NCBI GenBank assembly: GCA_026395685.1
Contig: JAPLYG010000006.1
Coordinates: 4,943 to 68,942, forward strand
Length of the DNA: 64,000 bases
From: Candidatus Parcubacteria bacterium
GTDB taxonomy: Bacteria; Patescibacteriota; Patescibacteriia; CAIXNZ01
Direction of reading: 5' to 3'
The notes beneath the pieces are model-generated. The model did no database searches and was not told where the DNA came from. It saw nothing but the letters and a program-made list of their open reading frames with translations. Position numbers and translations under genes: made by a program. Shown one piece after another: positions 8,863-62,101 of this stretch (its first letter is position 1; each line of letters starts with the position of its first letter).

Positions 8863-9019
8863 TAGCTAATATTAGCCCCTCTCTTGACATTTTATCCAAA
8901 ACGTGCTATACTTTTATATTGCTGAACCTTAACAATAATGGTTAATAACCTTTGAAAATACGTCTTTTTGAGGCAAAAATCAACCAAAAAACGAAACACC
9001 TAAACAAAAGGAGTTCTAG

Positions 9020-9841
9020 ATGAAGAAAGCCATGATCGCTGTGTTCTGCCTGATGTTCGCCCTGTTCGCCAACGCCTGCATGTATGCCGGCGATGAAGGC
9101 GACAACAACAACAACATCACCATCAACGACGGCGATACCGTCGTCTACGAGACCGGCGCCCTGTACCACTTCACGGCCTACGCGGCCTATGGACAGGATG
9201 CCTGGCTCCAGATCCAGAACCTCGAAACCGACGAGTGGAACAGCGAGCTCATCACCGTAACGACCGAGACCATGTACCGATTCCTGGAACCGGGCGAGTA
9301 CCGGATCTGGATTTCGGGCGTCAATGGCGCTTTCGACTGGTACGGCCACATTTCCGTCCAGGAAAACGTGGTCACCGACGTCTACGCTGAGTTTCACGAG
9401 TACACCATGGTCAACATCTGGATGGCCAGCAACGCCAGCACGCCGAGCGGTATGAGTCCGATCGGCAACTATACCCAGGTGTTGAAGTTCGACCTGGCTC
9501 ACGACTACCCGGAAGCCATCTCGATTAACGACCTAGGATTTACCCTTTGGGCAAGTCCCACAGTCGTCATCGAAAGCGCAACCCTCTGGGTCGTCCGCGA
9601 AAACGGCTGGGAAGAGGTTGCGACCTCCGTGAATCTGGGAGATAACTTCTTCTACCTGGATCTCGGAAGGTTTGTCCCTCTTTATCCCGGCGTGACGCAG
9701 TTCATGCTCACCGCCGAGATCACCGGGGCTTATAACGGCGATGTTCTGCAGGCCGAAATGACGATGGCCGGCTACACCCCCGACATCTTCACCAGAGGCA
9801 ACTTCCAGTCCTTCGCCATCGGCAACATTCTCACCTTCTAA
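9020..9841 (+). CDS. Lipoprotein, family member 2. GC-rich. Hypothetical.
   Basis: Lipobox LFANAC. AAAGGAG Shine-Dalgarno sequence. GC is roughly 58%. Ends at the shared terminator. Confidence 0.6.
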   Translation: MKKAMIAVFCLMFALFANACMYAGDEGDNNNNITINDGDTVVYETGALYHFTAYAAYGQDAWLQIQNLETDEWNSELITVTTETMYRFLEPGEYRIWISGVNGAFDWYGHISVQENVVTDVYAEFHEYTMVNIWMASNASTPSGMSPIGNYTQVLKFDLAHDYPEAISINDLGFTLWASPTVVIESATLWVVRENGWEEVATSVNLGDNFFYLDLGRFVPLYPGVTQFMLTAEITGAYNGDVLQAEMTMAGYTPDIFTRGNFQSFAIGNILTF

Positions 9842-22023: not shown

Positions 22024-23017
22024 ATTTAAAATAAAAAAAATTATGTATTATATTTTAATCGCCATTGTTTTATTTTTGGGTGTGTTTTTAGTTTTAGCCC
22101 AACTTACTTATCAGCCGCAAAAGCCGATTAAATATGGGGTTACTTTTTCTAAAGAGTTTGCCAGCTATCTTGGGCTTGATTGGCAAAAGGCGTATTCAGA
22201 CATGCTGGATGAGTTGCAAGTAAAATATTTACGACTGCCAGTATATTGGGATCAGCTTGAACCGCAAAAAGATCAGTATGATTTTTCCGCGGCCGACTGG
22301 CAAATTGGGGAAGCTGCCAAAAGAAATGTAAAAATTATACTCGTAGTCGGCCGCCGTCAACCGCGCTGGCCTGAATGCCATGATCCAGCCTGGGTTAATT
22401 CTGTTTCAAGTAAGGAGGCCAGGGAAAAGTTATTGAAAAATATTGAATTGGTCGTTAATCGCTATAAAAACAATTCGGCAATTGAAATTTGGCAGGTGGA
22501 AAATGAGCCTTTTCTTAATTTTTTTGGCAAATGCCCGAAAATGAGTAAACAAGAATTACAGGAGGAAATTGATTTGGTCAGAAAACTGGATAACCGTAAA
22601 ATATTATTGACTGATTCCGGAGAATTAAGTACCTGGTATCCCTTAAGTAAAATGGGTGATTATTTCGGCACCACTTTATACCGCACAACTTACAATAAAT
22701 ATTTTGGCTACTGGAATTACTTTTTTGTACCGGCTTCATTTTACCGCCTTAAGGCTTTAGCCCTGGGCAATTCTTTGGACAATACCATGATCGCGGAACT
22801 GCAGGCTGAGCCGTGGTTTTCGGACGGGGTAACAGCTACGCCCTTAGAAAAGCAATTAAAAGGCATGAATGCTGATAAGCTTAAAGCCAATGCCGAGTAT
22901 GCCAGAAAGACTAATTTTTCCCGCGCTTATTTTTGGGGAGTGGAATGGTGGTACTGGCTGAAAGTTAATCATAATAATCCCTCGGTCTGGGATGCGGCCA
23001 AGGAATACTTTAAATAA
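22016..23017 (+). CDS. Membrane-anchored glycoside hydrolase, clan GH-A (GH5-like)
   Basis: IWQVENEP carries the GH-A catalytic acid/base NEP motif. The region has a TIM-barrel-like pattern. N-terminal TM anchor. Confidence 0.5.
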   Translation: MSKFKIKKIMYYILIAIVLFLGVFLVLAQLTYQPQKPIKYGVTFSKEFASYLGLDWQKAYSDMLDELQVKYLRLPVYWDQLEPQKDQYDFSAADWQIGEAAKRNVKIILVVGRRQPRWPECHDPAWVNSVSSKEAREKLLKNIELVVNRYKNNSAIEIWQVENEPFLNFFGKCPKMSKQELQEEIDLVRKLDNRKILLTDSGELSTWYPLSKMGDYFGTTLYRTTYNKYFGYWNYFFVPASFYRLKALALGNSLDNTMIAELQAEPWFSDGVTATPLEKQLKGMNADKLKANAEYARKTNFSRAYFWGVEWWYWLKVNHNNPSVWDAAKEYFK

Positions 23018-23029
23018 TAAAATAAATTC

Positions 23030-23518
23030 ATGGAAAAATTAAAAAGTTTTTTATTAGTTGGTGTTTTAGTAGGTATTATTTTATTGATTCCTTACGAGAC
23101 TTATGCGTTAAATGAAGAAAGCCCGAAGATGAGTCAGGAAAGCTTGACTTGTCAAAATGATAAAGATTGCATTCTGGTAGAAAATCAGTGTGGTTTTACA
23201 GATGCAATAAATAGAAACTATTTAAAAACTTGGGAATATGCAGTAAGTATAACCCCAAAGGATATGTTGTGTGGTTGGATAACTAAAGCATGGCTCACTA
23301 CTGAGCATGAAGTTGCCAGGTGTAGAAATAATAGTTGCACTGTCGTAACAGAGTTAGAGTGGTGGGCAAAAAATTCAATAACAAGAAATGCCGTATTTTT
23401 TTATCATCATCTCAAACAGGGCAAAGTAGATTATTCTGCTTTAATATTCCCGGCAATGTTAATAGTACTGCTGATTTTGATAGGAATACTTATATTTAAA
23501 AAAAGAAAAAAAGTATAA
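23030..23518 (+). CDS. Bitopic Cys-motif protein, paralog 1. Hypothetical.
   Basis: N-terminal signal anchor. CQNDKDCILVENQCGF motif. A C-terminal TM helix followed by the tail KKRKKV. Confidence 0.5.
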   Translation: MEKLKSFLLVGVLVGIILLIPYETYALNEESPKMSQESLTCQNDKDCILVENQCGFTDAINRNYLKTWEYAVSITPKDMLCGWITKAWLTTEHEVARCRNNSCTVVTELEWWAKNSITRNAVFFYHHLKQGKVDYSALIFPAMLIVLLILIGILIFKKRKKV

Positions 23519-23637
23519 ACGTCATGTGGAAACGCCCTTTTTGGGGAGTGGAGTGGTGGTACTGGCTGAAAGTTAAGAATAATAATTCATCTGTCTGGGA
23601 CGCGGCCAAGGAATATTTTAAATAATAAAATAAATTT
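23519..23637 (+). repeat. Direct duplicate (~90% identical) of 22928-23046, the 3' end of the glycoside hydrolase gene plus the start of the next gene
   Basis: ttttggggagtggartggtggtactggctgaaagttaa...gggaygcggccaaggaatayttaaataataaaataaattyatggaaaaattaaaaa occurs twice. Confidence 0.7.
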
Positions 23638-24120
23638 ATGGAAAAATTAAAAATAAGCAGTATATTGATTATTATAGGAGTATTAGGTTTGATGTGCTTT
23701 GCATTGTTTAATATTTGGTTATTTAAGCAACAAACAAATTATGAAAATGAGGCTAAAAGACTTCCGTTGCCGAAGACTTATGATGAAAGAATTGCCTGTA
23801 ATAACGATAATGATTGCGTTTTATTTAGGGATAGATGCGGCGAGTTAATTCCCACAAATAAAAAATTTTTATACGCAATGGAAAAGCAGAAGCAGGCACA
23901 GATGGCAAGCGTTGATGGAGAATTTAGTCTATGCTTATTTAGCAGCCCAACATTATTATCAGGCGAAGAATTTGTTGCAAAGTGTAAAAATAATCAATGT
24001 GTCTTGGCAAGAGAAAAGGTAAACACTAAAATAAAAATATTTGCAGGAGTGATAATATTGATTGTGGGAATTGCGGTTATTTTTGTGATAAAGAAGAAAA
24101 GGCACTTGAAGATAAGTTAA
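23638..24120 (+). CDS. Bitopic Cys-motif protein, paralog 2. Hypothetical.
   Basis: Same architecture as paralog 1, with the motif CNNDNDCVLFRDRCGE. It begins with the same MEKLK. Confidence 0.5.
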   Translation: MEKLKISSILIIIGVLGLMCFALFNIWLFKQQTNYENEAKRLPLPKTYDERIACNNDNDCVLFRDRCGELIPTNKKFLYAMEKQKQAQMASVDGEFSLCLFSSPTLLSGEEFVAKCKNNQCVLAREKVNTKIKIFAGVIILIVGIAVIFVIKKKRHLKIS

Positions 24121-24298: not shown

Positions 24299-24327
24299 TT
24301 GACAAAAATGTATAAATATGATATTAT
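24299..24327 (+). promoter_or_regulatory. Consensus-like sigma70 promoter for the 24411 gene
   Basis: TTGACA, a 17-nt spacer, TATTAT. An ~80-nt leader follows, with an 8-bp hairpin cctagttg...caactagg before the GGAGG Shine-Dalgarno sequence. Confidence 0.55.
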
Positions 24328-24410
24328 ATGGGGTAAGTATTGAAATGTTCCTAGTTGTGCAAATCTTAGGCAACTAGGTTTTATTGGCCCAATAGCAAGG
24401 AGGAACATAG

Positions 24411-24731
24411 ATGGCTCTGAAGCAGTATCTGATTCGTTTGGCGATCATGTTCGCGGTTATCGTCGGTCTAGGCGCCGTGGTGATGGCCTTGCCGAACCAG
24501 GACAAGGCTGTCCACAAGCACATCATGAAACCGCTCCTCGTGGTGGATTCGCCCAAGCCGATTGGCCAGGGCCTCTACGTGGTGGTGGTTAAGCAGGGAA
24601 ACCTCAAAGTCCCGATGCTGACCATGAACCGCAACCTGACCGCTGGAAAGGTCGCCCAGATCGTGCGTTACGACCTCGACGGCAGCCACCCGGCCATCGA
24701 TCTGATGAACTTCACGTTCATGGCCGAGTAG
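24411..24731 (+). CDS. GC-rich small N-terminally anchored protein. Hypothetical.
   Basis: GC is roughly 58%. GGAGGAAC Shine-Dalgarno sequence. A TM helix LIRLAIMFAVIVGLGAVVMAL. Its own terminator at 24747-24776. Confidence 0.5.
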   Translation: MALKQYLIRLAIMFAVIVGLGAVVMALPNQDKAVHKHIMKPLLVVDSPKPIGQGLYVVVVKQGNLKVPMLTMNRNLTAGKVAQIVRYDLDGSHPAIDLMNFTFMAE

Positions 24732-24746
24732 TGCCACACGCCCAAC

Positions 24747-24776
24747 CCCCGGGAATCATTCCTGGGGATTTTTTTA
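24747..24776 (+). terminator. Rho-independent terminator
   Basis: ccccgggaatcattcctgggg followed by ATTTTTTTATTT. Confidence 0.7.
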
Positions 24777-24858
24777 TTTAAAAATTTGGGCGCAGTCAGT
24801 CGATTTTTTCATTAAGATATTATTCGATAATAGATGTTATTTTTGGTATAATTAGAGC

Positions 24859-26007: not shown

Positions 26008-26028
26008 ATAATAAATATAGTGACAAAC

Positions 26029-26105
26029 CCCCCACTGTTATTCAGAGCGAAGCGAAGGATCCCAACGTCCAAAGAGATCCCTCACTCTGTTCAGGATGAC
26101 AATGG
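26029..26105. repeat. Hairpin repeat, left flank of the GIY-YIG gene
   Basis: Contains ttcagagcgaagcgaaggatc, which recurs at 26456. Confidence 0.5.
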
Positions 26106-26143
26106 AGAAATGCAGTGAGGGTTTTGTGTCCATTTACTAACAT

Positions 26144-26440
26144 ATGGAAGACAATTCATACGCAGTTTATATCTTGATGAATAAAATGAGAACCGTAAAT
26201 TATACAGGGGTAACTAATGATTTAATTCGGCGAAGTTGGGAACACAAGAACAAGGTAAATGACGGATTTACCAAAAGGTATAAAGTTGATAAGCTTGTCT
26301 ATTATGAATTTTTTGAAGATATTAATAATGCTATTGCCAGAGAAAAACAACTAAAAGGTTGGTCAAAGGCAAAGAAGATGAAACTAATAGAATCTTTAAA
26401 CCCATATTACAAGGATTTATGGGAAGATCTTTGTAAATAA
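26144..26440 (+). CDS. GIY-YIG nuclease superfamily protein (small, stand-alone)
   Basis: YAVYILMN...YTGVTNDLIRRSWEH...Y.E.F....AIAREKQLKGWSKAKK is the GIY-YIG/URI pattern. Confidence 0.7.
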   Translation: MEDNSYAVYILMNKMRTVNYTGVTNDLIRRSWEHKNKVNDGFTKRYKVDKLVYYEFFEDINNAIAREKQLKGWSKAKKMKLIESLNPYYKDLWEDLCK

Positions 26441-26445
26441 AAATA

Positions 26446-26540
26446 CCCTCTGTCATCCAGAGCGAAGCGAAGGATCTCTTTGGTCGTCGATATCCAAGGA
26501 GATTCCTCATTTCATTCGGAATGACAGAGGGTGTTTTTTT
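26446..26540. repeat. Hairpin repeat, right flank of the GIY-YIG gene (~85-nt stem-loop followed by a T-run)
   Basis: ccctctgtcatccagagcgaagcgaaggatctc ... gagattcctcatttcattcggaatgacagaggg followed by T9. Confidence 0.55.
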
Positions 26541-27291: not shown

Positions 27292-27406
27292 ATAGGAATA
27301 TGGTTAGCTTTGGTTATATGTTGAAAAAATTGACAACATTACTTATATAAGCAGTATAGCAAATATAAGGAATATTGTCAATAGGTACTATTTTATGTTG
27401 AAGTAC

Positions 27407-27435
27407 TTGACAGGTTTGTAAAAATATGCTATACT
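27407..27435 (+). promoter_or_regulatory. Consensus sigma70 promoter driving the cassette array
   Basis: TTGACA, a 17-nt spacer, TATACT. The leader after it carries the hairpin gtcctgcagtgcgggac immediately before AAAAGGAG. Confidence 0.6.
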
Positions 27436-27564
27436 GCAATATCAGGATGAGAAAGGGACAAGTCCCTGGCTCACACCCGAACCACATATAGTAAGTTCAG
27501 AGTTCTTTAAAGATAAATACCCCACCCTCAACAGTCCTGCAGTGCGGGACAAAAGGAGTTTACG

Positions 27565-27942
27565 ATGGAAAATCAGATCAATTTTGCCGAAGTCCAGAAG
27601 CAGCTCGAAAGGTTTTTGGAACGGCTATATGGTGTACATCAGCCAATGTATCTAGATGGGCATGAGGATATTTGCGTGTGTCGTTTTGACTGCTATAAGC
27701 GCAGCTACCTTGACAAGTATGGTTCTTATGTCGTGCTTGCCCGGCAGAATGGTGACAAGACGAGTGTAGAGTTTTTAATGTCGATTATTGGTCCTTATGA
27801 TTTTACCATCATGAAAGTTTCTGAGTGCGAAAATGTCCTGACCTTAAAAGTTAAGTGGTTCAGTGGTTCGAAAGCTGGCCAAATTGAGGATCTTAATTTT
27901 GATTTTTCTAATCCGGTTGGTCTACTTGCTTTTGAGGTCTAG
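27565..27942 (+). CDS. Cassette ORF 1. Hypothetical cytoplasmic protein.
   Basis: 125 aa. Shine-Dalgarno AAAAGGAG. Sits in the conserved flank. Confidence 0.5.
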   Translation: MENQINFAEVQKQLERFLERLYGVHQPMYLDGHEDICVCRFDCYKRSYLDKYGSYVVLARQNGDKTSVEFLMSIIGPYDFTIMKVSECENVLTLKVKWFSGSKAGQIEDLNFDFSNPVGLLAFEV

Positions 27943-27969
27943 TCTGGAAGGGAAGCAGAAAACAGCATC

Positions 27970-28050
27970 TGCTCCCCGCCTAAATTGAGTCTTTTTCAAA
28001 GGGAAGAAGATTCAAAAGTAGGTTAAGTTCTTTAAATATCTATAACGTTT
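27970..28050 (+). repeat. Cassette junction core, copy 1
   Basis: ctccccgcctaaattgagtctttttcaaagggaagaagattcaaaagtaggttaagttctttaaa. Confidence 0.6.
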
Positions 28051-28071
28051 TCAACCCAAAGGAGAAATAAG

Positions 28072-28746
28072 ATGAAGAAGATGATGATGGCGGCCATAGT
28101 TGTTTGCCTGTTGGCTACTTCGGCTAAGGCTGGCCAGCTTCGTCTGGCTGGTTACTACGATGTCAGCAGGGAACAGAGAACCATCACGGTTGACGGTTTC
28201 TCGCAGCTGTCCACAAAGTGGAGCACCTGGGGGTTCGTGGACTTTTACACGACCCAGGGCAACCAGAAGGATGCGGCTGACAATGCTGATGTCCAGACAT
28301 TCTGCGGCAAAGGCACTCTGAGCTTTGTTCTCTGGCAGATCGATCAGCACAACTCTGTCAAACTGACTGGCGAGCTGATTGACTCCAGCTGGGCTAGCTC
28401 TGAGTTTCGTCCTGGCCTGCAGTGGGTGGTTGGCGGCGACTGGGGATTTGCGAACTTCAAAGTTCTGCCAGTGACTTTTGAACTGGTGGCGCCGGAAGAT
28501 CCGCTTCCTCAGGTTGGTGCCATTGGTGGAGCCTGGTATGTTAATGCCAGTGACAAGATGTTCTGGGAGGGCTTCTGGGAAATGACCTATACCTATGAGG
28601 ATCAGACTCGGTATTATCCGGTTATCGGAGAGACCCAGCTGGGATATCGTCTGACTGAAAAGCTCAATATCCTCGTAGAGTATCGGTACAACAACTTCGT
28701 GGAAGATGATCACGGCCTCGGACTCGGGGCTGAGATCGTCTTCTGA
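28072..28746 (+). CDS. Cassette ORF 2. Secreted beta-barrel outer-membrane-protein-like protein (OmpW/OmpA-barrel-like).
   Basis: Signal peptide MKKMMMAAIVVCLLATSAKA. Alternating hydrophobic strands. C-terminal ...GAEIVF ending in Phe. GC is roughly 55%. Confidence 0.5.
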   Translation: MKKMMMAAIVVCLLATSAKAGQLRLAGYYDVSREQRTITVDGFSQLSTKWSTWGFVDFYTTQGNQKDAADNADVQTFCGKGTLSFVLWQIDQHNSVKLTGELIDSSWASSEFRPGLQWVVGGDWGFANFKVLPVTFELVAPEDPLPQVGAIGGAWYVNASDKMFWEGFWEMTYTYEDQTRYYPVIGETQLGYRLTEKLNILVEYRYNNFVEDDHGLGLGAEIVF

Positions 28747-28773
28747 CATCAGGGGAGCGGACTAAGGATAGTC

Positions 28774-28894
28774 TGCTCCCCACCTAAATTGAGTTTTTTT
28801 CCAAGAGAAGAAGATTCAAAAGTAGGTTATGTTCTTTAAAGATAAATACCCCCCTCTAACAGTCCTGCAATGCGGGACAAAAGGAGCCAGAATA
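28774..28894 (+). repeat. Cassette junction core plus leader, copy 2
   Basis: ctccccacctaaattgagtttttttccaagagaagaagattcaaaagtaggttatgttctttaaagataaatacccccctctaacagtcctgcaatgcgggacaaaaggag. Confidence 0.6.
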
Positions 28895-29296
28895 ATGATG
28901 AACCCCGAGAATTTCCTGGTTGAAAGCAATGGCCGTTTGTCCGTCAACCCCGAGTTTAAGGCCGAGTTTGCCAGTATAGAAGAGGCAGTCGGTTACCTGT
29001 GCAGCGTCCTGGTTTATTTCCATGAAGAACTCTTCTGTGGGAATAACATCTACGACGGGAATGCTAAGCATTCCAGGAAAACTCCTCATCCGAAAAAAGA
29101 CTGGGAGTTTTGTCACAATGAAATTTCGAAGGGTAGCTTGCTGACCGGGGTTGCGCTTGATGCGATTTTTCAAGATTTCGGCGGATATCAGTCTTTTCGT
29201 AAGTTGCCTTTTGTTAAGACCCTGTTTGGGTTGAGGGGATCGAGATATATCAGCGTGAAGTATTCGGAGATGAAAGAATTCTCCGGAAAAAAATAA
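28895..29296 (+). CDS. Cassette ORF 3. Hypothetical protein.
   Basis: Start at the ATG at 28895, after the conserved leader and Shine-Dalgarno sequence. The 5' part of the tracked ORF (28829-28894) is the leader. Confidence 0.5.
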   Translation: MMNPENFLVESNGRLSVNPEFKAEFASIEEAVGYLCSVLVYFHEELFCGNNIYDGNAKHSRKTPHPKKDWEFCHNEISKGSLLTGVALDAIFQDFGGYQSFRKLPFVKTLFGLRGSRYISVKYSEMKEFSGKK

Positions 29297-29322
29297 TAAA
29301 AAGGGGAGAGATTGCTAAAAGC

Positions 29323-29385
29323 AACCTCCCCGCCTAAATTGAGTCTTTTTCCAAGGGAAGAAGCTTCAAAAGTAGGTTAAGTTCA
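29323..29385 (+). repeat. Cassette junction core, copy 3 (terminal)
   Basis: ctccccgcctaaattgagtctttttccaagggaagaagcttcaaaagtaggttaagttc. Confidence 0.6.
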
Positions 29386-29427
29386 TAAAATTAAACAATC
29401 TTAATTACATTATTAATTATAAATAAT

Positions 29428-30123
29428 ATGTATAAAATTTATAACCATACTTCAGCAAAAATGAAAGAGATTGGCCAGCAGTCGGTTGACTTGATTTTTA
29501 CTTCGCCTCCATATAACATCAGCACCAGCTACGGCAAATATCGGGATAATTTGAGTCTCAAAGCGTACCAAAAATTTCTGCAGTCAGTTATCGGCGAATG
29601 CGCCAGAGTAATTAAAAAAGACGGTAAATTAATTATTGAAGTCGCTGACAGTGTTTTGATTGGCTCAAAATATCTGCAGCTTGCAGCGCTGATTGCCAAA
29701 TATTGCCTGGCTAAAGATTTTGTTTTGGTTACCAGATACATTAACTTTATTAAAACCAGCAATAAAGTGGAATTGGCTGATCATAATATGACGCCTGACT
29801 TTATTAATAAAGGCGATACGCATTCCAACTGTCATCAGCTTTTGATTTTTGTCAAAAAGCCTAAACAGCATGAATTTAAAGATGAAGTTTTATACATTAA
29901 TTATCTGGATTCCAAAGAGCACCCTTGCCCGACGCCGAAAGCCATGCTGACTTTTATTTTAAACAGATATTTTAAGAAAGGCTATAAAGTTTTAGACCCT
30001 TTTAGCGGTACGGCTAATCTTGGCGCGGAAGTCTTGAAACGGGGTGGGGATTTCTATGGTTATGAAATAAATAGCGGTTTCTGTAAAATTGCTGAGCAAA
30101 AGTTAAAATCATTTAAATATTAA
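29428..30123 (+). CDS. DNA methyltransferase of the N4/N6 type, beta class, circularly permuted. Orphan.
   Basis: SPPY (motif IV) near the N-terminus. DPFSGTANLG (motif I, F.G.G) near the C-terminus. No restriction endonuclease gene is adjacent. Confidence 0.7.
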   Translation: MYKIYNHTSAKMKEIGQQSVDLIFTSPPYNISTSYGKYRDNLSLKAYQKFLQSVIGECARVIKKDGKLIIEVADSVLIGSKYLQLAALIAKYCLAKDFVLVTRYINFIKTSNKVELADHNMTPDFINKGDTHSNCHQLLIFVKKPKQHEFKDEVLYINYLDSKEHPCPTPKAMLTFILNRYFKKGYKVLDPFSGTANLGAEVLKRGGDFYGYEINSGFCKIAEQKLKSFKY

Positions 30124-30268
30124 AAAAGCCTCTGTTAACACGGGGCTTTTTTGAATAATATATAAATATTAAAAATCGAAGCGTCCTCCTCTTGTCACCC
30201 TAAGCATAGCCGAAGGGCGATGCTGTTGATTATGGTTCGACAAAGCTCACCAAAGTAACACCCTGGAT

Positions 30269-34430: not shown

Positions 34431-35000
34431 TAAGTCTAAAGTATAAAGGCTAAAGTCTAAGTTTTAGGAAGTTTTTTTGTTAAGTCTAAAGTATAAAGGC
34501 TAAAGTCTAAGTTTTAGGAAGTTTTTTTGTTAAGTCTAAAGTATAAAGGCTAAAGTCTAAGTTTTGGAAGTTTTTATTAAATTTAGGCTTTAGTCTTTTC
34601 TTTGTTTTCTATGGTTAAAATTGATTTTGAAAATATCAATGTTAGTTCATGAGCTTCTTGCCATAATTTTTGGCAATCATTTTTAAGTTCGGGAATTGCT
34701 TTAGAAATTAAATCCAGCCAATATTTAGATTCCTTTGCTTCCTTTTTACAAATATATAATTTATTTTTAAAATCACGCTTTGAACATGCGCCATTTGCTT
34801 CGCAGTAATTAGCTCCAACGCTGGTTACAGCTCGCACCAATTGGCTGATGAGAGGAAGAGTAATTACTGTTTTGGGGATTATACTTGCAAAAATGATAAT
34901 TTCTTCGCTGAATTTTTTTGTTCTTTCTTCTAGGTTATTAGGCATTTTAATATAAATTCATTAATTTAGCCTTTAGAACTTAGCCTTTAGACTTTGAATT
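34431..35000. mobile_element. MITE-like element carrying a four-helix-bundle gene (GTCTAAAG/CTTTAGAC inverted-repeat family). The left end has 3 x 50-bp tandem repeats.
   Basis: Three tandem copies of taagtctaaagtataaaggctaaagtctaagttttaggaagtttttttgt at 34431-34580. The inverted arm ...tagcctttagaacttagcctttagactt is at 34964-35000. Confidence 0.55.
34583..34945 (-). CDS. Four-helix-bundle protein (23S rRNA intervening-sequence protein family, TIGR02436-like)
   Basis: The motif YCEANGACSKRDFKNKLYICKKEAKESKYWLDL is characteristic of the family. The protein is about 85% identical to the ORF at 49751. Confidence 0.7.
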   Translation of the reverse strand: MPNNLEERTKKFSEEIIIFASIIPKTVITLPLISQLVRAVTSVGANYCEANGACSKRDFKNKLYICKKEAKESKYWLDLISKAIPELKNDCQKLWQEAHELTLIFSKSILTIENKEKTKA

Positions 35001-43184: not shown

Positions 43185-43619
43185 TTATTCAGAAATGACT
43201 TGTTGTGGAGTGCCTCCGTCGCCTTGCGATGCATAATAAAGAGCATTTAAGACATAGCTGGAAATAGCATAAGCTGAGATTATGATTACCAGGCCGATAA
43301 CCGCCTGGGTAATTACGGCCTTGGCTTTTTTAATTTTTTCTTCAGTGCCCATGGCAGTCATCCAGGTATAGCCGCCATAGATCATCAGGATAACAAAGAC
43401 AATTCCCAAAATTCCAAGCGCGGCGTTTATAACTTTGGCAATTAAGCTAAAAATATTAGTCGGTTGCTCTGACCCAAAAGCTGCCGATCCGAATTTTTGA
43501 ACTCCGCTGCTTATGGGCGTTGAGTCTGTCGGAGGAGTTGTTGCCTGAGCTAAAAGAGGCAATATTAAGCTGACTGCCAAAATAAGGATAATAAGAAATT
43601 TCACATTTAAAATTTTCAT
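43185..43619 (-). CDS. TrbC/VirB2-type (T4SS-like) pilin, paralog 1
   Basis: A signal peptide, a variable region, then TM1 ending in YGGYTWMTAMGTEEK...KAK..I..AVIGLVIIISAY, which is TM2. Confidence 0.65.
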   Translation of the reverse strand: MKILNVKFLIILILAVSLILPLLAQATTPPTDSTPISSGVQKFGSAAFGSEQPTNIFSLIAKVINAALGILGIVFVILMIYGGYTWMTAMGTEEKIKKAKAVITQAVIGLVIIISAYAISSYVLNALYYASQGDGGTPQQVISE

Positions 43620-43652
43620 AAATATTTTGTTAGGAAAAAATGATAGATTAGA

Positions 43653-44018
43653 TTATTTAGCGGCAAGCTCCAGGGCAGTGGTGATAAAATAAGCCAGACT
43701 ATAGGAAACAATAATAATTACAATACCGATTACAGCATATTTAATTATATTTTTCGCCTGCTCTATTTTTTTTGCATCACCCCTTGCGAGCATATAAGTG
43801 GTACCGCCATAAAGCAATAAAACAATAAAGACTATGCCCAAGACACCCAAGACACCCTGAACAATATTGCCGGCGATAATGTTTACATCTCTTTCTCCGC
43901 TATAACCCGTGTCCTCTATTGTTTTATTGAGTGATTCGGTAAATCTTGAAGCAAGGGCCAAATTAGCAGAAAAAATAAGAGTAATCAGGGCTAGGCAAAT
44001 TATAATTTTTTTAAGCAT
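43653..44018 (-). CDS. TrbC/VirB2-type pilin, paralog 2
   Basis: LLYGGTTYMLARGDAKKIEQAKNIIKYAVIGIVIIIVSYS. The start is ambiguous (M at 44018 or at 44033, or the tracked 44063). Confidence 0.6.
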   Translation of the reverse strand: MLKKIIICLALITLIFSANLALASRFTESLNKTIEDTGYSGERDVNIIAGNIVQGVLGVLGIVFIVLLLYGGTTYMLARGDAKKIEQAKNIIKYAVIGIVIIIVSYSLAYFITTALELAAK

Positions 44019-44022
44019 AAAT

Positions 44023-44412
44023 TTAAGAGGCATTTTCCAAAAGAGTCGTGATAAAATAAGCAATTGAATAAGATGCGATGATAATAATCAGGCCGATGAC
44101 AGCGCTAATAATAATTTTGCGCGCCTTGGCGGCCTTTTCTTCCGAGCCGGATGCGGTCATATATTGGAATCCGCCATAAATTATTAAAATCACAAAAACC
44201 AGGCCGAGAAGAGAAAAAAGAACCTGGACTGCCGTGCCTATAAATACGGCCAGATCGGTTTCACCTTTGACGCCTGCCTGAGAAGCGGTGGCATCAAGAT
44301 TAGGATTAATATTTTTCAGGCCTTGTGCCTGGCTATAATGCAGCGGGCAGGCTAGGGTAATAAATAAAAAAAACGCAAGAATAAGACAAGAAAGTAAGGA
44401 TTTAAATTTCAT
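44023..44412 (-). CDS. TrbC/VirB2-type pilin, paralog 3
   Basis: IIYGGFQYMTASGSEEKAAKARKIIISAVIGLIIIIASYS. Confidence 0.65.
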   Translation of the reverse strand: MKFKSLLSCLILAFFLFITLACPLHYSQAQGLKNINPNLDATASQAGVKGETDLAVFIGTAVQVLFSLLGLVFVILIIYGGFQYMTASGSEEKAAKARKIIISAVIGLIIIIASYSIAYFITTLLENAS

Positions 44413-44423
44413 AGATTTAAAAA

Positions 44424-44822
44424 TTATTGAATCGGTGTGCTTTCTGTTTGGGCGCTTTTCTCAAGGGAATTGGCAATGAAAGCTGTTGTGGCATAGGCGG
44501 AAATAATTATCACAATGCCGATTACTGCTGTTTTAAAGACTTTTTTGGCTTTATCGATTTTATTTTTATCAGCGCCAGACTCTGAAGTCATCCAGAGAAA
44601 TCCGCCATAAAGCATAAGCACGGCAAAAAGTACGCCAACCAGGCTTAATACGGCTTTAATCATTCCGGCAATAAATAAAGAATAGTCGGTTCCCGTCTCA
44701 TAGCCGATTGCCTGGCCGGAAGACTCGAAGTTTTTCTGAGCATCAGAAAAACCCTGAGCTAGGCAAATGCAGGGCAAAAGGATAGAAAGGCAAATAAGGG
44801 TAATTAATAAATATTTTTTCAT
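44424..44822 (-). CDS. TrbC/VirB2-type pilin, paralog 4
   Basis: MLYGGFLWMTSESGADKNKIDKAKKVFKTAVIGIVIIISAYA. Confidence 0.65.
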   Translation of the reverse strand: MKKYLLITLICLSILLPCICLAQGFSDAQKNFESSGQAIGYETGTDYSLFIAGMIKAVLSLVGVLFAVLMLYGGFLWMTSESGADKNKIDKAKKVFKTAVIGIVIIISAYATTAFIANSLEKSAQTESTPIQ

Positions 44823-44828
44823 AATATA

Positions 44829-45191
44829 TTAGGCTGTAAGAACACTGAAGATAAAGGCGGTAATGGAATAGGAGGCGGCAATAATAGTAACTCCGATTAT
44901 TGCCCAATAGAGGATTTTTTTTCCTTTAGTAAGACGCTCTTCATTGCCGGCGGCTGTCATTATGATTATTCCGCCATAGATGATAAAAAACAGAAAAATA
45001 GAACCTGTCAGGGACAGAGCGGCTCCGATTATTTGTCCGAAATACGTCGGCAAATCACCTTGAGGCAAAACAGTTTGATTTACTGTCTGGTTGAGATTGT
45101 CTAAGGGCGTTTGGGCTAAACAAAAGATACCAGGTATTAAAAAAAGATTAAGCAAAAGCAGTGTCAAAATTATCAAAGCTGTTCGGGGCAT
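44829..45191 (-). CDS. TrbC/VirB2-type pilin, paralog 5
   Basis: IIYGGIIIMTAAGNEERLTKGKKILYWAIIGVTIIAASYS. Confidence 0.65.
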   Translation of the reverse strand: MPRTALIILTLLLLNLFLIPGIFCLAQTPLDNLNQTVNQTVLPQGDLPTYFGQIIGAALSLTGSIFLFFIIYGGIIIMTAAGNEERLTKGKKILYWAIIGVTIIAASYSITAFIFSVLTA

Positions 45192-45197
45192 AGTTTT

Positions 45198-45581
45198 TTA
45201 TTGGCTCAGGGCTCCGAAAATAAAGGAAGTTATGGCATATGAAGCCGCTAAAATAGCAGCGCCAATTACAGCCCAGGTAATTACTTTTTTCCCTTTTTCC
45301 ACCCGGTCGCTTCCGGCAGAGGTCATTATCATGACTCCGCCATAAATTATTAAAAATAAAAAGATGGAGCCTGATAAGGCCAGCCCTGCGCCGACTACCG
45401 AGCCCAAAAACTCAGGAACAGAGACATCTTTTTTTAAGCCGCTTTGCGTGCCAGTCTCTTCCAGCCCATAGCCTCCTGTATCAGCGGGCGCATCAGTTGT
45501 TGCCTGCGCCAGATTGATAAAGGGAAGTGTCAGGGCTCCGAAAAGCAGGAGAGAAAGTAATAATAAAGAAAATTTGCGCAT
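45198..45581 (-). CDS. TrbC/VirB2-type pilin, paralog 6 (closest to paralog 5)
   Basis: IIYGGVMIMTSAGSDRVEKGKKVITWAVIGAAILAASYA. Confidence 0.65.
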   Translation of the reverse strand: MRKFSLLLLSLLLFGALTLPFINLAQATTDAPADTGGYGLEETGTQSGLKKDVSVPEFLGSVVGAGLALSGSIFLFLIIYGGVMIMTSAGSDRVEKGKKVITWAVIGAAILAASYAITSFIFGALSQ

Positions 45582-45728
45582 AAAAGTAGATTAAACATTT
45601 GGCCATTATGTCCGGCCAATGTCGTGATTAGAAATTGGAATTTATTGCTCTAAGGCAAGATGTTCCAAGCTCCAATCTGCAAAAAAGGGGAGCAGAAAAC
45701 TTTCCACTCCCCGCAAATATTCTAACTT

Positions 45729-46109
45729 TTAGGTAGTAGCAGAATAAAGTGCATTCAAGACAAACTGAGCGATTGCATAGGCACAAACGATAATTACCAA
45801 GCCGATAACACCCTGAATAATTAAGGTTTTTGCTTTTTTTACTGCTTCATCATTGCCCAAAGCAGTCATCCATTTAAAGCCGCCGATCAGGATAATGACC
45901 ACAGCAACTACGCCCAATAAAGCCATGGCGCTATTAATGATTCTGGCTGCAGTTGCGCGAATGTCAGCTGTTGCTAAGCTTGTTGACGCGGCAAATGATC
46001 CCAGGTTATTAAGCTGAAATTCTGGGTCAGCTGCATTAATAACTGCAGGAGCGACTAAGATGCCAAACAAGGCAATGAAAACTGCTAGACTTAATAAGAT
46101 TTTTTTCAT
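45729..46109 (-). CDS. TrbC/VirB2-type pilin, paralog 7
   Basis: ILIGGFKWMTALGNDEAVKKAKTLIIQGVIGLVIIVCAYA. Confidence 0.65.
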   Translation of the reverse strand: MKKILLSLAVFIALFGILVAPAVINAADPEFQLNNLGSFAASTSLATADIRATAARIINSAMALLGVVAVVIILIGGFKWMTALGNDEAVKKAKTLIIQGVIGLVIIVCAYAIAQFVLNALYSATT

Positions 46110-46272
46110 GTTTTTTAGTCCTTTTTAGTAATGCCCGGCTCGTTTTATATTCCGAACATTAAAATTAATTAGTAAATATTTAATTTTTAACTTTCAAAGA
46201 AACTATTCTCTTATCTTATTATAGCAAAAATGCTGTAAAACAAGCAATTATTTATTAACAGCCAAGGGTAAG

Positions 46273-46728
46273 CTATTCAGCTTCAAGCAGCGGCTTATTG
46301 CTTTCATCTTTCGGGGTTTGCGACCCTTGCTGTGATAAGGCGCCGATGATATATGAAACCATAACATAAGACCCAAAGATTACGACCAGGCCGATTGAAG
46401 CCCAAATCAGGGCGTTTTTGCCCTTAGTGATTTTGGTGGCATCACCCTGGGAAATGAGCATTAAAAATCCGCCATAAACGAAAATGATTAAGGCAATGGA
46501 TCCGACAATGCCTAAAGCGACCTGGATAATCAAACCAACGATTTGAGGAATAGTCAGATCAGGATTAACCGGACTGATAGTGCTCAAGTCAACTACAGTT
46601 GACGAAGATGACTGGTCATTGGAAGTTTCAGCCGGAGGCGTGCTGTCGGCAAAAGCAATGCCAACGGGAGCAAGAAGCAAAGTCATAAGCACAAGCGAGA
46701 AGAAAAGGAGGGATAATAGTTTTTTCAT
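46273..46728 (-). CDS. TrbC/VirB2-type pilin, paralog 8 (Ser/Thr-rich N-terminal variable region, acidic C-terminal tail)
   Basis: FVYGGFLMLISQGDATKITKGKNALIWASIGLVVIFGSYV. Confidence 0.65.
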   Translation of the reverse strand: MKKLLSLLFFSLVLMTLLLAPVGIAFADSTPPAETSNDQSSSSTVVDLSTISPVNPDLTIPQIVGLIIQVALGIVGSIALIIFVYGGFLMLISQGDATKITKGKNALIWASIGLVVIFGSYVMVSYIIGALSQQGSQTPKDESNKPLLEAE

Positions 46729-46839
46729 AAAGTAAAATAATAATTATTTAGGAAATAGTCTTTGTTTCGAATTCAGAAGGGGCTCTGAGAAAATTTGCCG
46801 GCTATTCCCGGTAACGAAGCTATATTGCTTCAGGCATTT

Positions 46840-48228
46840 TTACCGGGTCTGAATAGGTTTAGGTGCCGGGGGAACAAATCCAGCAGGCACACAGGTATAA
46901 AGCCACATACTTTTAGAAATGCATTCATCACTGCTACCTGCGCCTTCGCCGATTTTGCCCTGTCCGCACATATTTAAATTATTAGTCAGGCACTTTAGTC
47001 CGCCTTGGCAGTCGTCATTATTATTACATTTTGTGGCAATTGTTCCTGGCTGGCAGCGATTAGCTATAGGGGAAAAATCATCAAAAGCGCATTTCGGCGC
47101 TGAAACTCCTGCATAGCTGACTCCTACGCAATCGGCATCACTGTCACAATCACACCAACCACCCACCTTCATTTGCTCAAAATTTTCCGGTACGCAAGTT
47201 TTTGATGTTCCAGAGGAAAGGTTAACAGAACCAGTTGCGTGTGTGCAATGATTTGTTGCCCAGCATGCATCTTCATTATTCTCGCAGTAACGTTGCTGAT
47301 ACTCTCCTAAGCATTTATAGCCTGTAGGGCATTCTGCATCATCATTGCATGGAGAAAAAGGCTTGCCATCAGGCACGCAGTTATTGCCCCAATCAGTCTG
47401 GCAATGGAAGCCCACGGCGCAATCAGTGTCATCCCCTCCGCAGGGTGTGCCTAAATAGCCATAAGAACAGTGATTAAGCCAATTTCTTTGGCAGAATAAG
47501 GGGGATTGGCAGTCTGTATTGTTATCACAAGGGGCGCCTAACCCGCCTTTAAGTTGTAGATTTTTTATACATTTTCCTCCGGAGCATAAGCCATCACAGC
47601 ATTCTCTGTGATCCGTACAAACAGCATTTTCCGGCTTACAGCTGCCACAGTCCCAGAGCGAAGTAAGGGCATCATAAGTGCAGACTGTTCCGGTTACGGT
47701 ACATAACTTGCCGATACATTGATTACCGTCACCATCAGTATAAGGATCTCCGCAGTTTTTTGTTTGATCTTCCAAGCATTTATTTTGATTTTCCTGCCTT
47801 GCCGAATCATCTTCTGCTATTACCAATTCCGGTAAGCCGGGCATGGGCGCGCATTTTAGAGTAATGTTCCAGTCAAAACGATCTTTTTCAGTCAGGCTAT
47901 TAACCACAAAAGCGACAATGATATAGGCTAAAAAGGTGATCAGCAGTCCGATTATAGAATTAATCAGAATTTTTTTGCCCGTGTCTATTTTTCCGCTTTC
48001 ACCACCGGAAGTCAGCAAAATAAAACCGCCATAAACAAACATCAGCATAACTAAACTGCCGACAATGCCCATGAGGATGGTGCCGATCTTTAAAAAAGTA
48101 TTGACTATATCGCACAGGCTGCAGATGCCGGAAGAAGCGCAGGCCGGCAGAATAGATTCAACTGCGCTGGCCGGTAGAGCAACTGCAAGGGCGCATAAAA
48201 TAATCAAGCCCAATAAGATTTTTTTCAT
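46840..48228 (-). CDS. Pilin-domain protein fused to a ~330-aa Cys-rich extracellular domain (putative pilus-associated adhesin)
   Basis: An N-terminal 110 aa of pilin type (FVYGGFILLTSGGESGKIDTGKKILINSIIGLLITFLAYI). Then more than 50 Cys in repeated C..D.DC and G..C motifs. Confidence 0.6.
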   Translation of the reverse strand: MKKILLGLIILCALAVALPASAVESILPACASSGICSLCDIVNTFLKIGTILMGIVGSLVMLMFVYGGFILLTSGGESGKIDTGKKILINSIIGLLITFLAYIIVAFVVNSLTEKDRFDWNITLKCAPMPGLPELVIAEDDSARQENQNKCLEDQTKNCGDPYTDGDGNQCIGKLCTVTGTVCTYDALTSLWDCGSCKPENAVCTDHRECCDGLCSGGKCIKNLQLKGGLGAPCDNNTDCQSPLFCQRNWLNHCSYGYLGTPCGGDDTDCAVGFHCQTDWGNNCVPDGKPFSPCNDDAECPTGYKCLGEYQQRYCENNEDACWATNHCTHATGSVNLSSGTSKTCVPENFEQMKVGGWCDCDSDADCVGVSYAGVSAPKCAFDDFSPIANRCQPGTIATKCNNNDDCQGGLKCLTNNLNMCGQGKIGEGAGSSDECISKSMWLYTCVPAGFVPPAPKPIQTR

Positions 48229-60714: not shown

Positions 60715-61101
60715 TTATGCCTGTTTTGCCGGCACATTGGCAGGATTAGTTGCCTTTAACCAGCCACCCAGCATTTTGCCTAAGCTATCAAGACTTTCGT
60801 GAATTTCTCCGTATTTATTATCAGATAACTGTTTTACATCTTTAGCCATATCAGCAAAGACTTTTAGGGTATCAAGTTTGCGCATCGCTTGTTTTAAGGT
60901 GCCAAACTTGTCTGTTTTGCTCTGTCTGGTGGCAATAACTATTAATTCCAATATTTCCAAAACCGTGATTTCAGAGCTTTTTCTTAAGGTATTATCTTCG
61001 CTTTTAGCCATATCTGCGCACTGCTGATATAGATTGTAAGAACGATCTAAAATAGGGAATTTTTCTGAAAAATTGTCTAAAATGTCTTTTGATTTTTGCA
61101 T
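60715..61101 (-). CDS. Hypothetical helical protein
   Basis: 128 aa, predicted all-alpha. Terminator aaaaccttcctattcccaccggaaggtttt downstream. Confidence 0.4.
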   Translation of the reverse strand: MQKSKDILDNFSEKFPILDRSYNLYQQCADMAKSEDNTLRKSSEITVLEILELIVIATRQSKTDKFGTLKQAMRKLDTLKVFADMAKDVKQLSDNKYGEIHESLDSLGKMLGGWLKATNPANVPAKQA

Positions 61102-61289
61102 ATAAGTTTAAGATTATTTATTTAATTTTTGCTTACAATTAGCCAAGATATTAAATTTTCAAGGTGCATATACAAGAGTTTATTGGGCCCTACTCTTGAC
61201 AAAATGTTATATATGTGTTAAACTATGTAATTAGGCAAAAAGGTTAAAATTTCTAACAAAACACTTCTTTGACCAGGAGGTAGATAATC

Positions 61290-61481
61290 ATGTCCAAACA
61301 GAGGGAACGATTTTTCCAGGCTTTCAATTGTCTCCCGAGCATCGTACGCAGTAATGCGTACCCGGACGCGGACTTGCTGGTGGAAAGAGGAATTAACTGC
61401 CTCTCGTCCAACGCCAGCTCGGAGGACTATTTAAAATTCTTCGAGCTCTACGACCAGGCCCCTGCCCAGCTTCGGGCATAA
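61290..61481 (+). CDS. GC-rich hypothetical small protein
   Basis: AGGAGG Shine-Dalgarno sequence. 63 aa. Terminator ccccgactttcaatagccgggg followed by T5. Confidence 0.4.
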   Translation: MSKQRERFFQAFNCLPSIVRSNAYPDADLLVERGINCLSSNASSEDYLKFFELYDQAPAQLRA

Positions 61482-61598
61482 GCCTCAACCCGCCTTTACC
61501 CCCGCCTAATAACAGCGCCAGCTGGGCCCCGACTTTCAATAGCCGGGGTTTTTCTTTTAGTTGAAAGTTCAAAGTTCAAAATTTAAAGTTATTTCCGT

Positions 61599-62101
61599 AA
61601 TAATCAATAATCAAACATCAATCATCAAACAAATTCTAATAATAAATATCTAATAATCAAATTTTTGTAATTTTGTTCTTTTCAATTATGGAAGTAAATA
61701 TTTTTATCAATTGGGTGGACTCATCGATCAAATTATTTTGTTCAGATTCTATACCGCAGACATTGCCGGTTTCAATTAATTTTAACCATAGACGGCTTTC
61801 CTTTACTTCTTTGCGGCAAATTTTAAGTCTGTGTACAAAATCCTTTTTACTTAAAGCTTCATTAGCTTCAATATAATTAGCTGCTGTTGAGCCCGAGGAT
61901 CTTATTAATTGCTTAGCATATTCCCAGTAGGATAAAGTTTTAGGAATTATTTTAGTAAAATTTCTGCATTTAATAGTAAATTGATAAGTTCTATCTTCTA
62001 AATCAAATGGTCTTAGCTCTTTCATGGATGTATTTAGTTGGAAATTAGAATTTTAAGATTAGTTATTGTTTGAATATTGATTATTGATGATTGGTGATTT
62101 T
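61599..62101. mobile_element. MITE-like element carrying a four-helix-bundle gene (AATCAATAATCAA inverted-repeat family)
   Basis: Left arm taataatcaataatcaaacatcaatcatcaaacaaatt. Right arm gtttgaatattgattattgatgattggtgatttt. Empty copies are at 6203 and 20973. Confidence 0.55.
61657..62025 (-). CDS. Four-helix-bundle protein (23S rRNA IVS protein family), divergent third member
   Basis: ANYIEANEALSKKDFVHRLKICRKEVKESRLWLKL. Confidence 0.65.
   Translation of the reverse strand: MKELRPFDLEDRTYQFTIKCRNFTKIIPKTLSYWEYAKQLIRSSGSTAANYIEANEALSKKDFVHRLKICRKEVKESRLWLKLIETGNVCGIESEQNNLIDESTQLIKIFTSIIEKNKITKI

Follow-up and report, generated by a model that had tools for sequence, protein, structure and literature searches.

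A structured intercistronic module accompanies gene turnover in TrmB-linked arrays of Candidatus Parcubacteria

When genes that share no similarity stand one behind another in nearly identical flanking sequence, the question is how they came to be there and whether an integron has captured them. This question is raised by a short gene array on the ordinary chromosome of a Candidatus Parcubacteria metagenome-assembled genome (MAG; locus tags NTZ49_, proteins MCX6739836-44), which we analysed within a stretch of 64,000 nucleotides of contig JAPLYG010000006.1, here called the window. In the array, three mutually unrelated open reading frames (ORFs) at 27565-29296 are interspersed with three copies of a ~90-nt module. 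A preliminary description, made from the letters of the DNA, had taken this arrangement for cassette capture, either by an attC-like integron mechanism or by a modular shuffling system. We found that the array is cassette-like and that its genes are shuffled, but that it is not an integron. The lack of similarity among the three ORFs, on which the description relied, was borne out by pairwise BLASTP, with best E-values of 20-24 or no alignment.

The module, its fold and the leader

The preliminary description had seen a separate GC hairpin and then a conserved core after each ORF, and folding with RNAfold together with a repeat search agreed with it. A 77-nt unit is present in three copies (27968-28044, 28772-28848 and 29322-29398) with 82-90% identity to the reference copy. 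With up to 3 mismatches allowed, sub-patterns of the core and the leader occurred 3, 3 and 2 times, compared to 0.00-0.02 expected in shuffled sequences, and no occurrence was found outside the array in the 64-kb window. The module consists of a variable GC hairpin (HP1), a conserved AU/GU-rich hairpin (HP2) and a single-stranded (A/U)GUUCUUUAAA motif. HP1 starts 5-11 nt past the stop codon across the loci (5-7 nt in the window) and has a GGGGAG/CUCCCC base, a variable inner stem and loop, and no U-tract. One purine after HP1, HP2 begins and runs through CCUA, an internal loop, UUGAGUCUUUUUC, a 5-nt loop, GAAGAAGAUUCAA, a second internal loop and UAGG. The motif lies 3-8 nt 3' of HP2 and is followed by a variable spacer, in some copies with a hairpin adjoining the Shine-Dalgarno site, and then by AAAGGAG and the start codon. 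No relevant Rfam family was found, either for the window at gathering score or for the array region at E up to 10.

The same two hairpins were predicted by RNAfold in all 13 distinct module copies from six loci, and the sense strand was more stable than its reverse complement in every copy folded both ways. In the alignment of HP2, 95.3% of the cells were paired and three pairs had changes on both sides. None of 500 shuffles reached either the pairing or the covariation score, the pairing fell to 40-62% once the partners were slid, and RNAalifold recovered the helix independently. The HP2 alignment contains 26 G.U pairs and a single A.C, and because of this asymmetry the fold appears to be selected on the sense strand, i.e. 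in the transcript. In HP1, at least 8 different inner-stem sequences occur, and all of them pair over 7-14 bp.

The leader of the array has a layout parallel to that of the module: a 5' hairpin, the 10-nt GUUCUUUAAA motif, an optional hairpin and a Shine-Dalgarno site. The strong promoter reported in the preliminary description was recovered by a signal scan (Table 1), and up to the terminator at 30130 no other site on the + strand resembles a strong promoter; the scan found no internal promoter or U-tract terminator between the two. Five other loci (L004, L011, L013, L014 and L015) preserve the -10 element and the transcript start when the leaders are aligned, and GTTCTT-AAA of the motif is invariant, the seventh base being A in L011. 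The 5' hairpin was predicted alike in 6 of 6 leaders, with a compensated stem in L013 and a shortened stem in L011. The hairpin adjoining the Shine-Dalgarno site has as its L004 counterpart GUCCUGUAAUAUAGGAC, which contains a compensated pair. A shared leader before two of the three ORFs had also been claimed, and the repeat search placed its two copies at 27502-27558 and 28831-28886.

Divergent from the array is the gene of a TrmB-family regulator, whose promoter is the mirror image of the array promoter. In the window this gene is split by a 1-nt deletion in an A-run at ~27093, where the alignment shows A8 in contrast to A9 in the intact genes of L013 and L014. The frameshift may stem from an assembly error, mark a pseudogene or act as a phase-variable switch; in the last case it would derepress the array.

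Gene turnover at TrmB-linked loci

A scan of a genome collection detected the module in another Parcubacteria MAG (JAPLYC010000067), and further loci were reached by tracing protein homologues to their contigs. The module is now known from six distinct loci, the window and five other Parcubacteria loci from different samples, where it encloses non-homologous genes. A covariance model was searched against 186 kb of sequence, ~64 kb of it from the window genome. All 16 matches fell within arrays divergent from TrmB and on the sense strand, and none was found elsewhere in the 186 kb. Every module array lies downstream of a TrmB-divergent promoter. Independent assemblies were concordant, L004 with L005 and L011 with L012.

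The gene contents of the arrays are given in Table 1. L014 is syntenic with the window (GT4 gene, TrmB, array) and has flanks 84-86% identical to it. The window has ORF1, an outer-membrane-protein-like (OMP-like) gene and ORF3, whereas L014 has ORF3, a receiver-like gene and an OMP-like gene, so that both content and order differ. Because such differences occur at related loci and at a syntenic one, a local duplication is refuted and modular shuffling is supported; the preliminary description had named a single local duplication as an outcome that would overturn it, and the module was instead found in other genomes around different genes. Gene turnover at a fixed locus is demonstrated.

The smaller parts of the flanks have also been exchanged in different combinations. 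One type of HP1 (alpha) stands behind ORF1 in the window, and in L014 and L013 it stands behind the receiver-like gene; another type (beta) travels with ORF3. An identical segment of spacer, ribosome-binding site and ATGAAGAAGAT precedes the OMP-like gene in the window and in L014, and the receiver-like gene in L015. The 5' untranslated region (5'UTR) of the leader precedes ORF1, ORF3 and an unrelated gene of L004, and the leader-type 5'UTR with ORF3 holds the first position in L014 and L015. The L015 variant of ORF3 is a 42% mosaic homologue, in which only the 5'UTR and the first ~90 nt (~25 residues) are common to both.

A second sequence family is represented by the five-gene array of L016, whose TrmB is 51% identical to that of L004. 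In its spacers, a GC hairpin that varies is followed by a conserved one, unrelated in sequence to HP2 (..CAUCAUCAUGGUGAUGGUG..), and then by CGUUCNUUGAAA directly before the Shine-Dalgarno site. The protein of its last gene is distantly homologous to the receiver-like cargo (E = 1e-4). At 3940-4130 of L016 (- strand), a ~60-nt 3' remnant of an ORF for a STIV_B116-like protein is duplicated, together with its hairpin, after a 202-aa ORF, and it is a scar of recombination inside the array.

The module was absent from L006, L007, L008 and L017, which still have divergent, strongly promoted small genes beside TrmB. It does not track the TrmB phylogeny, because the closer TrmB relatives in L006 (78% identical to that of L004) and L007 (73%) are without it. 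L008, which comes from a relative of the window, is the second TrmB locus of that genome and has, at 8940-9190, a different leader in which two hairpin copies (GCGTC..GACGCGGTTTGC) precede a single 241-aa ORF of 46% GC. Single pattern matches in two Bacteroidota loci (L001 and L002) gave no covariance-model match and were taken as chance. Scans of JGI metagenomes returned no match for the core or the leader, IMG/VR returned no match for the core and no OMP-like relatives, and the whole array had no blastn match in phage and plasmid collections.

Explanations for the array

The likeness to integrons deserves to be weighed in detail. As in integron arrays and clusters of attC sites lacking integron-integrases (CALINs), promoterless, co-oriented, non-homologous and mostly unannotated ORFs stand behind one strong promoter, a structured repeat of 60-130 nt follows each ORF and is near-identical within the array, and gene content and order vary between close relatives, here at a syntenic locus. 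A site-specific cassette system, integron-like or novel, could produce this arrangement if the module were the analogue of attC, the leader motif the analogue of attI, and a recombinase encoded elsewhere moved circular cassettes. It would also account for a 10-nt motif common to the leader and the modules, like the core site of attI and attC, for a GTTAAGT box that fits GTTRRRY in several copies, and for a module sequence far more conserved than the adjoining genes. However, we regard such a system as unlikely. In agreement with the preliminary description, which saw no integrase, Pfam scans of 57 window ORFs (all main, non-nested ORFs of >=110 aa and the short ORFs near the array) returned neither an integrase nor a resolvase or transposase. 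Recombinases of the tyrosine or serine type were likewise not found in the 64-kb window or in 20 kb around the L004 array, where Pfam detected no integrase and the sole candidate recombinase was a Y1_Tnp gene (2e-6) 9 kb away. The neighbour of the array is TrmB, and no IntI was found beside it. The GTTAAGT box, present in some copies, lies outside the helix on its 3' side, and the 5' box GCCTAAA is not complementary to it but pairs its CCUA with UAGG; the pairing of R'' (RYYYAAC) with R' (GTTRRRY) at the base of the stem, and the extrahelical-base features of attC, are missing. Integrons recombine a folded bottom strand, whereas the fold of the module, rich in G.U pairs, favours the top, sense strand. 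The homology breakpoints are scattered: they lie on either side of HP1 (towards the stop codon or towards HP2), at the start codon or within ORFs. They differ in this from the one G|TT crossover of integrons and point to homologous or illegitimate recombination among short conserved segments and not to one site-specific crossover. A 3' ORF remnant inside the L016 array, 5'UTR modules that unrelated ORFs have in common right up to the start codon, and the recurrence of cargo families also argue against such a system. Of the preliminary reading, the modular shuffling therefore stands, since the flanks enclose different genes elsewhere, and the integron or attC part does not.

It is also conceivable that a selfish palindrome of the kind of miniature inverted-repeat transposable elements, REP or ERIC invaded the gaps of an operon and was mobilised in trans, for example by a Y1/HUH transposase. 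The module is indeed palindromic, though imperfectly so, it is 60-90 nt long and lies between genes, its hairpins are strand-specific like those that IS200/IS605 and RAYT enzymes recognise, and the Y1_Tnp gene lies near the L004 array. We consider this very unlikely, because in the 186 kb searched the covariance-model matches are all confined, in sense orientation, to the TrmB-divergent arrays, no Y1 transposase is found in the window, the spacing to stop codons (5-11 nt) and to Shine-Dalgarno sites is fixed, the leader follows the same grammar, and the L016 sequence family has a matching architecture. An ordinary conserved operon, in which recent local duplication or an assembly artefact gives the look of repeats, is extremely unlikely, although OMP-like and receiver-like genes recur in many arrays, as a functional core set would. 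Different genes surround the module at the six distinct loci, which come from different samples, the paired assemblies agree, the ORFs are non-homologous, and the longest exact match between modules in the window is ~22 nt, which is under the typical final k-mers of assemblers. Some other candidates were rejected. A tRNA-like or RNase P/Z minihelix reading of HP1 fails as the loops vary, a T-loop is absent and ARAGORN finds nothing; dif/Xer sites would have palindromic arms, which are absent; and the repeats are separated by ORFs, in contrast to type III toxin-antitoxin repeats and CRISPR. For a diversity-generating retroelement the repeats are in the wrong place, being intergenic, and no reverse transcriptase was met, none having been specifically searched for.

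On balance, we think it somewhat probable that the module is an RNA punctuation or insulation element that also mediates recombination, within an array that has a single promoter and is linked to TrmB. We infer here RNA processing, binding of Nus factors and a mechanism of recombination. A single transcript would begin near 27441 and be punctuated by the modules, with cleavage at or near the junction of HP1 and HP2 between cistrons. After cleavage, HP1 would be a protective 3' stabiliser of the upstream mRNA; we suggest this role because HP1 has no U-tract, which genuine terminators in these genomes have. HP2 would be the protective 5' hairpin of the downstream mRNA and would mimic the hairpin of the primary leader, and the motif may recruit a factor, possibly NusB/NusE, that reloads an antitermination complex of Nus type before every cistron. 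Recombination within the modules and the common 5'UTR modules would delete, permute and exchange cistrons within and between genomes. As long direct repeats that these genomes have in common, the modules could thus give rise to a cassette-like array without a dedicated integrase. Structured intercistronic repeats can be cleaved or act as 3' stabilisers, giving segmental mRNA stability. REP/BIME, ERIC and Correia elements and the RNase III sites of the T7 early region are structured repeats co-transcribed between cistrons, as the module is predicted to be. However, REP/BIME, ERIC and Correia elements are dispersed in tens to hundreds of copies in both orientations, and the T7 sites belong to a fixed phage gene order. 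Unlike those palindromes, the module is found in one kind of locus, always in sense, and accompanies gene shuffling.

The part assigned to the motif is suggested by its likeness to boxA. The exact 10-mer GUUCUUUAAA occurs three times in the window, all within the array, compared to 0.58 expected. It is one base from GTTCTTTGAAAA, a conserved sequence of the 16S-23S spacer in Mollicutes that serves as a generic Mycoplasma primer and is also contained in a phytoplasma probe; we take this spacer element to be a boxA. In most copies the motif agrees with the boxA consensus GYTCTTTAANA at 10-11 of 11 positions, and weaker matches are found in the W3, L11, L13, L14b and L4e modules; this consensus is gamma-proteobacterial (PMC5725501) and may not be that of the host. 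BoxA elements are also known to protect CRISPR arrays from Rho (PMC7665894), and boxA of the suhB type stands 10-50 nt upstream of start codons, as here (PMC5725501, PMC7665894). The context is that of rrn boxB-boxA, where a hairpin is followed within a few nt by a single-stranded motif of the type G(U/C)UCUUUAA: a hairpin lies just upstream of each motif, and the signal stands in the leader and again inside the unit before each cistron, as rrn antitermination signals stand in the leader and again inside the transcription unit. No rRNA operon was found in the window or the comparison loci and, unlike rrn boxA, the motif precedes every protein-coding cistron of a variable array.

Several observations weigh against the explanation by RNA punctuation. 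With one mismatch allowed, the boxA consensus occurs 21 times in the window, compared to 22.4 expected; because such matches are at chance frequency, the boxA reading is a hypothesis drawn from context and not from statistics. The covariation in HP2 represents few independent events among 13 related copies. In addition, HP2 reaches 98-100% identity between lineages whose TrmB proteins share only 44%. This exceeds a purely structural constraint, and DNA recognition by a recombinase or recent lateral spread could apply. Some module copies as a whole are 98-100% identical across lineages with TrmB proteins of 37-44% identity, which suggests sequence-specific protein recognition or lateral spread, so that a role at the DNA level stays possible beside the one in RNA. 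Finally, this reading does not account for the raised GC content of most cargo ORFs.

A related idea, to which we give a small but real chance, is that these loci represent an undescribed cassette platform of Parcubacteria and related Patescibacteria, in which a TrmB-controlled promoter is combined with a module that is both an RNA punctuation signal and the site of recombination, at the DNA level or through an RNA template. Cistrons would then change position, locus and genome, and would do so with no integron integrase or by means of a novel type of recombinase. If so, the platform would be an analogue of the integron with an independent origin in ultra-small symbiotic bacteria. We found no description of such a module or array in the searchable literature. 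Bacteria of the candidate phyla radiation have tiny genomes with few recognised mobile elements, and their gene acquisition and expression are poorly understood. What this type of locus brings together is a promoter both strong and regulated, an RNA module that can be reused and supplies each gene with a uniform 5' and 3' context, and clear gene turnover between near relatives. If the module works as we propose, it would be a natural "plug-in" expression cassette and would add a new case to the RNA punctuation of bacterial operons. A dedicated mechanism of recombination, should there be one, would make these arrays a new class of cassette system.

Cargo, setting and other features of the window

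The array lies ~10 kb downstream of dnaA and dnaN, and Pfam scans identified genes for PBP, RuvC, RuvB, trigger factor and others nearby. The orphan DNA methyltransferase that had been placed at the end of the array was recognised by Pfam; its gene has the native AT-rich composition and may be co-transcribed with the array, and no restriction enzyme gene adjoins it.

Table 1. Features of the array in the window (positions of the window) and gene order of the module arrays
Feature	Position or gene order	Strand	Evidence
Divergent gene of TrmB-family regulator, broken into ORFs of 76 and 164 aa	26570..27291	-	Pfam TrmB 5.6e-14
TrmB promoter TTGACA-17-TATACT	27353..27381	-	signal scan; inverted-repeat search
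Array promoter TTGACA-17-(TG)cTATACT	27407..27435	+	signal scan, 11/12 matches with TG extension
Hairpin at 5' end of leader (AUCAGGAUGAG..GGGAC-AAGU-CCC..CUCACACCCGA)	27441..27480	+	RNAfold
GUUCUUUAAA motif (boxA-like) in leader	27502..27511	+	exact 10-mer count, leader alignment
Hairpin adjoining Shine-Dalgarno site (GUCCUGCAGUGCGGGAC), then AAAAGGAG	27534..27558	+	repeat search, RNAfold
ORF1, 125 aa, orphan without family	27565..27942	+	Pfam, PADLOC/PHROGs, protein search
Module 1, HP1 (GGGAAGCAGA..UCUGCUCCCC)	27950..27977	+	RNAfold
Module 1, HP2 (27978-28023) and GUUCUUUAAA motif (28027-28036)	27978..28036	+	covariance model 99.9 bits
ORF2, 224 aa, OMP-like	28072..28746	+	homologues, signal peptide, predicted beta strands
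Module 2: HP1 28752-28781, HP2 28782-28827, motif 28831-28840	28752..28840	+	covariance model 94.7 bits
Second copy of leader 5'UTR module, with hairpin 28862-28878 and AAAAGGAG	28841..28886	+	repeat search
ORF3, 133 aa, no family	28895..29296	+	homologues in L014, L015
Module 3: HP1 29303-29331, HP2 29332-29377, degenerate motif GUUCAUAAAA 29381-29390	29303..29390	+	covariance model 93.3 bits
Orphan N6/N4 DNA methyltransferase	29428..30123	+	Pfam N6_N4_Mtase 6.4e-27
First canonical intrinsic terminator downstream of array promoter	30130..30153	+	signal scan
Window array	ORF1, OMP-like, ORF3, then methyltransferase		
L014 array	ORF3 (86% identical), receiver-like (263 aa), OMP-like...		
L015 array	ORF3 variant, receiver-like...		
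L013 array	receiver-like (260 aa), OMP-like, then canonical terminator		
L011 / L012 array	OMP-like, 428 aa, then canonical terminator (L011)		
L004 / L005 array	145 aa, AAA_28, 184 aa (motif-related to the 145-aa gene), receiver-like, 135 aa, 256 aa, then canonical terminator (L004)		

None of the three cargo proteins matched a Pfam family, and a search of 1.84 billion representative proteins gave no credible homologue of ORF1. ORF2 carries a signal peptide, ends in Phe and is predicted to form ~12 beta strands. Its homologues are 66-80% identical, in addition to one DUF5020 protein at 38%; they include an 80% paralogue on another contig of the same MAG, and a copy elsewhere is annotated as "opacity protein-like surface antigen". 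The AlphaFold2 model of ORF2 is all beta but of low confidence (pLDDT 54.9), and its Foldseek matches, although weak, are all outer-membrane barrels. The protein thus looks like an outer-membrane beta-barrel. Parcubacteria are presumed to have a single membrane, and a predicted outer-membrane barrel is odd for this reason. Other arrays carry receiver-like proteins, an AAA_28 NTPase and a STIV_B116-like protein, and most of the cargo is unannotated. Because the OMP-like and receiver-like families recur across the arrays, the cargo appears to be drawn from a limited pool and not from random genes. When ten cargo proteins were scanned with PADLOC and PHROGs, no meaningful match resulted; the PHROGs matches were of AAA_28 to thymidylate-kinase-like phrogs and of the receiver N-terminus to phrog_731.

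The composition of the cargo is less unusual than was thought. The preliminary description gave 45-55% GC for the ORFs and roughly 33% for the backbone, and these figures were wrong: ORF1, ORF2 and ORF3 have 41.3%, 53.0% and 45.0% GC, compared to 39.2% for the window, and the GC content at third codon positions (GC3) is 0.44, 0.63 and 0.55, while the background averages 0.395. ORF1 thus hardly stands out, and the argument for foreign GC is weaker than claimed. In the L016 genome, the genes flanking the array have 47-55% GC, so the cargo there is no compositional outlier. The cargo may thus have its donor pool in GC-richer relatives.

Some minor observations were made in the rest of the window. 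An isolated small ORF at 24411-24731 (region 24300-24790) has a GC content of 0.58 and a GC3 of 0.83. It has its own TTGACA/TATTAT promoter, a 5' hairpin, a strong ribosome-binding site and a canonical terminator, and no module; a near-identical copy is found in L010 in the same context. A stand-alone GIY-YIG ORF (26144-26440) lies in a 514-bp segment (26014-26527) that is absent from the syntenic L014, and ~110 nt at the 3' end of this segment (26426-26536) recur after the L011 array (L011 10135-10245, 80% identical), which suggests a small mobile or repeated element. Small ORFs for four-helix-bundle proteins like bAvd and 23S_rRNA_IVP are present at 60715-62025 and 34583-34945. They adjoin an LTD/PKD surface protein (62115-63542) and might belong to a diversity-generating retroelement as its accessory genes. 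Small ORFs on the minus strand, two of them with T4SS_pilin domains, form a cluster at 43185-48228. Finally, a repeat of ~98 nt (22934-23031 and 23542-23639) is located at the ends of two adjacent 160-aa ORFs, and both copies have a match in L010; the arrangement resembles a tandem duplication of a gene in place.

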